Shown here: positions 8,369 to 11,034 of the stretch, one piece after another | How the letters are laid out: every line of letters starts with the position of its first letter | Numbering within the stretch: position 1 is the stretch's first letter | IMG/VR virus record: IMGVR_UViG_3300027976_000006 | Span: 1 to 64,000 of that record | Source: a virus | DNA: 64,000 nt | Strand: one strand, 5' to 3' | Notes under the pieces: model-generated | Told to the model about the DNA's origin: nothing | Databases searched by the model: none | The model's input: only the letters and a program-made list of their open reading frames with translations | Position numbers and translations under genes: made by a program

Positions 8369-8422
8369 ACCTAAATAATAGGCAAATCCGTGTCATTATT
8401 ATATAGAGGGAAACCTTAACTA
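8369..8422 (+). promoter_or_regulatory. Repeated promoter-like element, copy 1
   Basis: acctaaataataggcaaatccgtgtcattattatatagagggaaaccttaacta; near-identical copies at 9449-9502 and 10081-10133; AT-rich -10-like box; each copy precedes a gene. Confidence 0.75.
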
Positions 8423-8472
8423 ATGTGTGTTAAGGTTGATCCTTTGTTTCTTTGTTTCTATGGGAGATACAT

Positions 8473-8840: not shown

Positions 8841-9242
8841 TTGGCTGGGTATTTTGGGCATTTTTGGGCAAAAGCGGAAGAAGGGTCAATCCCCGATAGG
8901 ATGGCACAGCACATCTCGCCGACTGGTAGTTGGGTAAGCGGCACGGGTCGCTTCTCAGTAACAATAAACCCACAAACTGCAGTGGTGTCGATCGACATAA
9001 ACCGCAAGGGCTACGGCCCAGTGGTTTATGTTGAAGGAAACCTCGGGGCTATGCCCCGAGTTAAGTTAATTGGCAAATGGAAGATTCGACATCTGCAGGC
9101 AGCTAAAGCTTTGTTAGACGAACTTTTCGGGGTCGCAGGTGCTGATATTCTGTACAAGGAAGTAGAAAAATCGGATTATTTCCCGCGGGAAGAGGCTCAC
9201 CCCACCTCCCGCTTTTTAAACCCCCCAATCTACAAGGCGTAA
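8841..9242 (+). CDS. Hypothetical protein (start uncertain)
   Basis: 133-aa ORF between a terminator and the ncRNA. Confidence 0.5.
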   Translation: MAGYFGHFWAKAEEGSIPDRMAQHISPTGSWVSGTGRFSVTINPQTAVVSIDINRKGYGPVVYVEGNLGAMPRVKLIGKWKIRHLQAAKALLDELFGVAGADILYKEVEKSDYFPREEAHPTSRFLNPPIYKA

Positions 9243-9259: not shown

Positions 9260-9436
9260 GATAGACATACCTGTTAGGGGTAGTTTGTAAGGCAAACGAA
9301 AGATCTCTGCAGGGGTCTGGATACTTACAAACTACACTAACTCAAATCAATGAGTTAGTTAGCGTCCCTGTATGTCTATCTCTCAGCAGACTTCCAAACC
9401 CAGCTGCCCTTCGGGGTAGTTGGGTTTATTTTTTTT
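9260..9436 (+). ncRNA. Candidate structured non-coding RNA (multi-stem junction) with its own promoter and terminator
   Basis: Stems gatagacatac/gtatgtctatc (11 bp), gtagtttgtaag/cttacaaactac (12 bp), ctaactca/tgagttag (8 bp) and agatctc/ggggtct; no ORF; promoter-like gcgtcataat upstream. Confidence 0.65.
9396..9436 (+). terminator. Intrinsic terminator (identical copy at 10028-10068)
   Basis: aaacccagctgccc-ttcg-gggtagttgggttt followed by a T-tract. Confidence 0.9.
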
Positions 9437-9448
9437 AGGTATTGTCAT

Positions 9449-9502
9449 ACCTAAATAATGGGCAAATCCGTGTCATTATTATATAGAGGGAAACCTTAAC
9501 TA
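9449..9502 (+). promoter_or_regulatory. Repeated promoter-like element, copy 2
   Basis: One mismatch to copy 1. Confidence 0.75.
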
Positions 9503-9503
9503 T

Positions 9504-9568
9504 AGCAGAGGACACCCCCTTGGGTGTAATGCACTGTGGCTTCTTAGCCACACCGGTTCCAAGTCCGG
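9504..9568 (+). ncRNA. Twister-like self-cleaving ribozyme (circularly permuted) in a 5' leader
   Basis: GCA-GA-GGA-[CACCC cctt GGGTG]-TAA-TGC-AC-[TGTGGC ttctta GCCACA]-[CCGG TTCCAAGT CCGG]. P1, P2, P3, P4 and both pseudoknots (TCC/GGA, AC/GT) fit the twister fold. Confidence 0.75.
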
Positions 9569-9656
9569 GCATTTGATTCAGCTACCTATTTTTAGTTCAT
9601 TGTGAACTTTAGGGTAGCTGTAATTGTTTTATGGTTTCTACGAAGGAGATTGTATT

Positions 9657-10022
9657 ATGTTGAGTAAAATGTTGGCTTCTGTTAAAAACTGCCGCGCCGA
9701 GCAAAAAGAATTTCAACGAGCTAGGTACGCTCGAGTTGCGGAGCGACTGAATGCGCTGGGGGATGGACTTCTCCAGTTTGAGGTAAAGGGGTGCGCTGGG
9801 CTTGACGACCCACGACATTGGGTTGAGGTCGAGTTGCCCCGCGGGGGGACTAACCACGTCCATGCCTTAAAGCTGTCCTTGACAACTGACCCCGGTTTTC
9901 TCAAGGTGACCGACCATGTCGGGACCAAGTGGGAAAAAATCGACGAAGACGAGCTGATGGGGCACATTGCACTGGATTTCACGGCTCACTTCGAGCCGGA
10001 GGAACCAGAAAAATATTGGTAA
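9657..10022 (+). CDS. Cassette 2 hypothetical protein
   Basis: AAGGAG RBS before ATG 9657, in frame with ORF 9624..10022. Confidence 0.7.
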   Translation: MLSKMLASVKNCRAEQKEFQRARYARVAERLNALGDGLLQFEVKGCAGLDDPRHWVEVELPRGGTNHVHALKLSLTTDPGFLKVTDHVGTKWEKIDEDELMGHIALDFTAHFEPEEPEKYW

Positions 10023-10027
10023 CCAGT

Positions 10028-10068
10028 AAACCCAGCTGCCCTTCGGGGTAGTTGGGTTTATTTTTTTT
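10028..10068 (+). terminator. Intrinsic terminator
   Basis: Identical to 9396-9436. Confidence 0.9.
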
Positions 10069-10080
10069 AGGTATTGTCAT

Positions 10081-10133
10081 ACCTAAATAATAGGTAAATC
10101 GGTGTCATTATTATATAGAGGAAACTTTAACTA
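10081..10133 (+). promoter_or_regulatory. Repeated promoter-like element, copy 3
   Basis: A few substitutions and one indel relative to copy 1. Confidence 0.7.
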
Positions 10134-10188
10134 TTATGTTGGTTAAGGTCGTTCCTCTATTCTTGGTTTCTATGATGGAGATATCGCT

Positions 10189-10961: not shown

Positions 10962-11034
10962 CCAATGGTCGCAGTATGCGATTTGTTTTTTGATGCTGTA
11001 AAAGCACCAATAACAAATCACATACTGCGATCTT

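Follow-up and report, generated by a model that had tools for sequence, protein, structure and literature searches.

Organisation of the locus

The window analysed here is the first 64 kb (64,000 nucleotides) of a 156,975-base phage record in IMG/VR (IMGVR_UViG_3300027976_000006), which has a GC content of 44% and a CheckV completeness of 76%. The best terminase match of this phage, at 30% identity, is to large phages of Gram-negative hosts, and a BLAST search with the locus against 50,697 phage records matched nothing. The locus comprises three cassettes, and the one in the middle, cassette 2, is composed of parts that are all read from the plus strand. In order these are a terminator, a promoter-like element, a constant 5' leader, an RNA module, a constant RBS leader, an orphan gene and a second terminator.

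The intrinsic terminator of the upstream unit (9396-9436) is made up of a stem of 14-17 bp (9396-9427) and a T run. The terminator that closes cassette 2 (10025-10069) is identical to it, the two copies forming a direct repeat, and this identical terminator stands in front of both cassette 2 and cassette 3. In these two cassettes the terminator is followed by an operator-like palindrome, AGGTAT TGTC ATACCT (9437-9452 and 10069-10084), and then by the promoter-like element; cassette 1 lacks the palindrome.

The promoter-like element (9450-9489) is present in three copies in the record and is kept in related phages. An alignment of eight copies includes those of the relatives, which carry indels and were found by BLAST (a substitution-only pattern misses them). 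It contains two invariant blocks, CTAAAT at 9451-9456, which is like a -35 element, and GTGTCATTATT at 9470-9480, which holds TGTCATTAT at 9471-9479. CTAAAT lies 17 nt upstream of CATTAT, and TGTCATTAT, with its TG before CATTAT, reads as an extended -10 element. In the same alignment the blocks are followed by a GAGG-type start, and the element as a whole is read as a promoter with a putative start site near 9486-9492. A search of the phage for a T7-like RNA polymerase gave no match, and its control was equally silent.

The constant 5' leader (9486-9503, GAGGGAAACCTTAACTAT) is common to cassettes that carry different RNA modules. Together with the constant RBS leader (GTTTCTA..GGAGAT) this leader (AACCTTAACTAT) brackets the variable RNA module, and the cassette sequences part exactly at 9504, the first base of the twister ribozyme described below. 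Between the ribozyme and the RBS lies a long hairpin (9575-9625) with a core stem of 9579-9586 and 9613-9620 and an inner stem-loop. This hairpin, which the initial annotation had delimited as 9579-9620, is reproduced in the minimum free energy (MFE) fold and reaches -18.8 kcal/mol with a z-score of -4.5 when folded alone. The constant 3' leader with the RBS follows at 9633-9656 (GGTTTCTACGAAGGAGAT), includes the Shine-Dalgarno sequence AAGGAG (9643-9648) and is common to cassettes 1 and 3. The cargo gene at 9657-10022, defined by its open reading frame and RBS, encodes a 121-aa orphan protein. Comparison of this protein with Pfam and PHROG gave no match, no relatives were found in 5.8 billion clusters or in viral contigs, and a search of 1.84 billion representatives returned one weak partial match (E 3e-4) and nothing else.

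Sister cassettes and related phages

The element shared by the cassettes extends over 53 nt and has three copies in the 157-kb record, at 8370-8422, 9450-9502 and 10082-10134, and no others. The promoter blocks, the first 18 leader bases and the RBS leader are held in common, and the content of the slot between the constant leaders differs. Sister cassette 1 (8370-8437) has the same promoter and leader and a 5' stem-loop of 9 bp (8412-8420/8429-8437), and sister cassette 3 (10082-10149), again with the same promoter and leader, has one of 10 bp (10124-10133/10140-10149). Both stem-loops occupy the slot that is filled by the twister in cassette 2, and the earlier statement that the other two cassettes have only a short hairpin there holds for 8412-8437 and 10124-10149. 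A further hairpin of the region, 66 nt in length and near-perfect, is located at 10967-11032, before a terminator and beside a CsrA-like gene; it scores well below threshold with several microRNA-precursor models.

Two related phages (L065 and L076), with about 82% and 63% protein identity in the flanking genes, each have two copies of the promoter-like element in the corresponding interval, ahead of different cargo genes. In copy A of both phages the slot is occupied by another 5' stem-loop, and in copy B by a terminator-like hairpin with a U run. The copy B hairpin (L065:8353-8412, L076:3709-3768; CCCTCG..CGAGGG TTTTCTTTT) again stands behind the shared promoter and constant leader, carries compensating changes when the two phages are compared and has an upstream GAGGGC that offers an alternative pairing with GCCCTC. 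In sequence terms it looks like a leader attenuator. If the predicted start site is taken, every cassette that lacks a twister has a stem-loop formed from its first transcribed bases.

No twister is found at this locus in the closest IMG/VR relatives, and by this sequence comparison the twister module is specific to the present phage lineage. Because these relatives have no twister here, the locus itself provides no covariation. The twister may be a recent arrival at the locus.

A type-P5 twister ribozyme in the leader of cassette 2

The RNA module of cassette 2 begins with a genuine type-P5 twister ribozyme (9504-9568), identified by its sequence, its secondary structure and both of its pseudoknots. 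The initial annotation had described a permuted twister at this position, and each of the elements that it listed was found where it had been placed when checked against the letters of the window. P2 consists of 3 bp between GCA (9505-9507) and UGC (9530-9532). The T1 pseudoknot connects the P1/P2 internal loop to L4 by pairing GGA (9510-9512) with UCC (9558-9560). P1 is a closed hairpin (9513-9526) of 5 bp, CACCC (9513-9517) with GGGUG (9522-9526), which is present in the Rfam alignment and in the MFE fold. It is followed by UAA (9527-9529), which is part of UAAUGC. The T2 pseudoknot is formed by AC (9533-9534), at the junction after P2, and GU (9563-9564) in L4. P3 is likewise closed (9535-9552) and pairs UGUGGC (9535-9540) with GCCACA (9547-9552) in the MFE fold. 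P4 with L4 (9553-9568) has 4 bp, CCGG (9553-9556) with CCGG (9565-9568), around the loop UUCCAAGU. This order of elements is the type-P5 permutation, in which the chain ends at the P5 position and both P1 and P3 are closed by loops. The MFE fold of 9500-9625 reproduces P1, P2, P3, P4 and the long hairpin, with a z-score of -4.3 and none of 200 shuffles as good.

An Infernal search with the Rfam models matches Twister-P5 (RF02684) at 9504-9568 on the plus strand over model positions 1-58, the full length of the model. The score of 38.1 bits passes the curated gathering score of 37.6 bits, which confirms the permuted twister and identifies its permutation as type P5. The match is marginal, being 0.5 bit over the threshold where other phage copies score 40-62 bits. 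When all 4227 families are searched in the window the E-value of the match is 2.3e-4, and a search of the whole 157-kb record with this family by itself gives 1.3e-7. No other Rfam match in that record, which was covered by the window and the remaining 93 kb, exceeds its threshold, and a search of the cassette leaders for other Rfam families at E up to 1 gave nothing beyond long-hairpin noise. The upper-case consensus letters of RF02684 are all matched in the window copy, the exceptions being the T1 and T2 positions, which covary, and a fourth P2 pair that is optional.

Of the stems of the twister class P1, P2 and P4 are essential, and all three are present in the window copy. Some ten nucleotides in L1 and L4 are strongly conserved in the class, and its scissile bond, next to P1, joins a U of lesser conservation to a highly conserved A (PMC5408937). 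The cut that had been predicted at U9527/A9528 agrees with where the Rfam alignment puts the UAA that follows P1. The sequences that flank the window ribozyme on its 5' and 3' sides have no complementarity from which P5 could form. This stem is optional in the class (PMC5408937) and is not included in the pairs of the RF02684 model, and its absence is therefore no bar to membership. The element thus belongs to a known class and adds no new chemistry.

Comparison with type-P5 twisters of other phages

A scan of IMG/VR for the type-P5 block order, in which one variable position per pseudoknot and its partner were left free, produced 55 loci. Without duplicates and three identical pattern matches the scan set comes to 57 distinct instances, the window included. 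The three matches (L025, L031, L052) were set aside for lacking the P1 hairpin; L031, the only one of them that was scanned with Rfam, gave no match.

The free T1 position is paired in all 57 instances (42 G:C, 15 A:U), and so is the free T2 position if a one-base shift in register is allowed (30 G:C, 24 A:U, 2 G:U and 1 C:G). The window copy has A:U at the free position of both pseudoknots, whose complementarity (T1 GGA/UCC, T2 AC/GU) had already been pointed out in the initial annotation. Since pseudoknots are not scored by the covariance model, their pairing serves as an independent test of chance. It bears on the proposal that the element is a chance look-alike, or a decayed and inactive copy, for which the 0.5 bit over the gathering threshold, the short P1, P2 and P4 and the missing P5 could be cited. 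Such a proposal is nevertheless very unlikely, as it has to contend with an E-value of 1.3e-7 for the genome, the retention of every invariant letter, the compensation of both unmodelled pseudoknots in the same manner as in 57 of 57 relatives, the occurrence of the same architecture with other stem sequences elsewhere and an MFE fold that is the class fold.

A 3-bp P2 and the lack of P5, both of which had been described correctly from the start, had also raised the suspicion of a variant or inactive ribozyme. This suspicion is not upheld. The 3-bp P2 is the majority form, being present in 40 of the 57 phage copies, and P5 pairing in the flanks of the phage set has a mean z-score of about 0, with one of 58 below -2. 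As both features are normal among phage type-P5 copies, neither is a sign of inactivity. P1 and P4 of the window copy, with 5 bp and 4 bp, are among the shorter ones in the phage set, where a 5-bp P1 is found in 6 of 58 copies and an unextended P4, as in the window, in 9 of 58. The optional P3 hairpin is rarer still (3 of 58 copies in the viral set). Phage copies with P3 score 40-48 bits in Rfam and those without it 48-62 bits; P3-bearing copies thus score low in general, and the low score of the window copy can largely be put down to its P3 insert.

The subtype to which the window copy belongs, with an A:U pair in T1, AC in T2 and a P3 that is directly attached to T2 and P4, is found again in L080, L023 and L041 with P1 and P3 sequences that are entirely different from those of the window. 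In L080, a separate metagenome contig, P1 is CUGCC/GGCAG, P3 has 11 bp and the score is 38.3 bits.

The ribozymes at the 55 viral loci usually begin 0-8 nt behind a stop codon, and from their end it is 12-38 nt (median 26) to the next start codon. Many of the viral contigs contain arrays of 2-5 twister copies that are spaced by single small genes. Examples of arrays are L040:1247-3466, L007:96-3164 and L010:200-1297, with three to six type-P5 twisters and single small genes between them; the sixth copy of L007 scores 37.5 bits, just below the gathering score. The genes that flank phage type-P5 twisters are mostly short and of unknown function, and no PHROG recurs among the genes flanking the 55 loci. 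One contig (L028) has, about 340 nt upstream of its twister, a near-threshold match to the F. prausnitzii HDV-like ribozyme (2506-2576; 42.4 bits against a gathering score of 44), which would place two ribozyme classes next to each other.

Natural variation and origin of the module

Identical sequence is present in three freshwater metagenome runs, and in an estuary run as well, over the parts of the locus that each of them covers; no RNA run was listed for the locus. The contigs of a further run, X4, leave a gap at 9426-9678, and a gap in cover proves nothing. A diverged estuary strain (X5) covers 9502-9668 and is altered at 9570 (C9570), 9633 and 9634, with a further deletion at 9652. Altogether there are four substitutions and one deletion in its 102 covered flanking bases and none in the 65-nt ribozyme (p about 0.09), and this unchanged sequence is weakly consistent with constraint on the ribozyme. 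The hairpin region of X5 has no substitutions between 9570 and 9633, hence no covariation by which the hairpin could be judged. A helix between GAAACC (9490-9495) and GGUUUC (9633-9638), which forms part of the MFE structure predicted for the complete leader, was rejected, X5 having altered 9633 and 9634 with no compensation seen.

In an X5 contig position 8846 is joined to 9233 with 5 other letters between them. The 133-codon open reading frame at 8841-9242 is consequently absent from X5, and its loss is another sign of cargo swapping in the region. Another X5 sequence follows the constant leader (...AACTATA) at 9485-9504 and is then joined to a different sequence starting ACGCAAGGAAGCCCTCGCAGGG. 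It may represent a further cassette with another leader module, and as the contig is short and oddly joined it may also be an assembly artefact.

Cargo swapping of this kind leads to a different view of the twister, according to which an active ribozyme, the hairpin and the orphan gene arrived jointly by recombination from a phage in which the twister was an ordinary intergenic processing site. The ribozyme would then be a passenger with no cassette-specific role, beyond perhaps cutting transcripts that read through the upstream terminator. The intergenic location of typical phage copies, often in arrays of 2-5, is in line with such an origin, as are the relatives that have no twister at the locus, the exchange of cargo between constant promoter and terminator repeats and the divergence that starts exactly at the first base of the ribozyme. 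However, the cargo protein has no relatives through which a donor context could be demonstrated, the constant RBS leader downstream is the cassette's own and not that of a foreign operon, and the ribozyme is unchanged in X5 while its flanks change. This passenger reading as a whole is considered unlikely.

Predicted cleavage and the proposed role of the new 5' end

The preferred interpretation assigns the twister a function within the cassette. Following initiation at the putative start site the RNA is expected to fold during synthesis and to cut itself at U9527/A9528 by internal transesterification. The released leader would be about 36-42 nt long, with a 5' triphosphate, the P1 hairpin at its end and a 2',3'-cyclic phosphate. 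In type-P5 twisters P1 is wholly contained in the 5' piece, and with no more than the 3 bp each of P2 and T1 to keep the two pieces joined, they should part readily. The mRNA of the 121-aa gene would then begin with a 5'-OH, which follows from the chemistry of the twister class, and would carry P3, P4 and the 51-nt hairpin before an unchanged RBS. A post-cleavage helix between AAUGC (9528-9532) and GCAUU (9569-9573) that would bury the 5'-OH end is not supported. Across the phage copies helices of this type have a mean pairing of 0.36 compared to 0.31 in shuffled flanks (p 0.16), and in the window 13% of shuffles equal the helix and the X5 change at C9570 breaks it.

It is proposed that the type-P5 twister, placed in the RNA slot of the cassette, cuts the leader and thereby defines and shields the 5' end of the mRNA and uncouples it from upstream RNA, and on balance this is probably its role. 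A function in defining and shielding the 5' end is favoured because the slots of the sister cassettes hold 5' stem-loops and because the predicted layout equals that of RiboJ, an engineered ribozyme element discussed below. Protection of the 5'-OH end by the hairpins is plausible by analogy with the sister cassettes, which carry their 5' stem-loops in the same slot. A more far-reaching suggestion, which is tentative and on present evidence somewhat doubtful, is that the twister is a natural insulator of the RiboJ type and serves, in the standardised expression cassettes of this phage lineage, as a plug-in module for 5' ends that can be exchanged for a 5' stem-loop or an attenuator-like hairpin.

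The direction in which a 5'-OH end shifts the stability of a message depends on the RNases of the host. The opposite outcome can therefore be envisaged, in which the active ribozyme is a decay trigger: with the triphosphate lost the 5'-OH product would be degraded faster, and expression would fall below that of the sister cassettes. The glmS ribozyme is a precedent for a ribozyme in a 5'-UTR that lowers expression (PMC6765202), and before cleavage the twister leader lacks the protective 5' stem-loop of the sister cassettes. The set of RNases would be that of the host, to which the terminase points only as far as phages of Gram-negative hosts at 30% identity. Rapid decay is, on the other hand, hard to square with the two ribozyme hairpins and the 51-nt hairpin that would stay at the new 5' end. 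The window ribozyme moreover has no ligand-sensing part, and the RiboJ type of layout increases expression in E. coli, so that a decay trigger appears unlikely.

Comparison with known systems

Published work describes the twister class and the three circular permutations in which it occurs, and has linked it to phage genes (PMC5408937; PMC10085705; PMC6765202). The copy in the window shares with RF02684 the order of elements, the conserved letters, both pseudoknots and the U/A cut site. It is distinguished by the variable pair, which in each pseudoknot is A:U instead of G:C, by a short P1 and P4, by the presence of the optional P3 and by its location behind a promoter-like element and not between genes.

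Thousands of twister and hammerhead ribozymes have been catalogued near phage genes and their biological role has been called elusive (PMC6765202; PMC5408937). For those between genes of phages and prophages the processing of polycistronic transcripts has been suggested (PMC6765202; PMC10085705). Like these, the window copy is phage-borne, lies on the gene strand just upstream of a Shine-Dalgarno sequence and has small genes of unknown function nearby. Unlike the intergenic copies, which are wedged between stop and start codons and are often arranged in arrays, it is an outlier: a single copy, 88 nt away from its start codon, with a terminator and a promoter-like element ahead of it and a long hairpin after it. 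Most phage type-P5 twisters are situated between genes with no space for a hairpin behind them, and a RiboJ-like layout is therefore not the norm of the family.

The value of the present copy lies in its setting, a large freshwater phage in which a twister cassette stands beside two sisters that are free of ribozymes, a natural control design. The three cassettes thus lend themselves to a test of what phage twisters do to their messages, be it to stabilise or destabilise them or simply to trim them. If the insulator reading were true, the general role of phage twisters would be to provide messages with defined and shielded 5'-OH ends, and the sister cassettes would be its built-in control. A further possible use of the twister leader is as a compact, naturally occurring part for synthetic 5' insulation.

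In the glmS system a self-cleaving ribozyme likewise resides in a bacterial-type 5' leader and leaves a message with a 5'-OH, and the cleaved mRNA is degraded by cellular RNases (PMC6765202). The glmS ribozyme differs in that it needs a metabolite cofactor, lowers expression, has a different fold and is tied to one gene family, whereas the window copy has no sign of ligand control.

A parallel in layout is RiboJ, in which an sTRSV-derived ribozyme and a 23-nt hairpin are placed between promoter and RBS and which increases transcript and protein levels in E. coli (PMC6206723). With its putative promoter and its predicted cleavage the cassette would share with RiboJ the succession of promoter, self-cleaving ribozyme, hairpin, RBS and gene. 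In the window the hairpin and the RBS are present, the promoter is supported by its conservation ahead of varied cargo and the start site is a predicted one. In RiboJ cleavage strips the promoter-derived leader and leaves a 5' end that bears a hairpin, and the same is proposed for the window. RiboJ is engineered and originates from the sTRSV satellite RNA, whereas the ribozyme of the window is a natural twister, and the resemblance is one of functional analogy only and not of homology.
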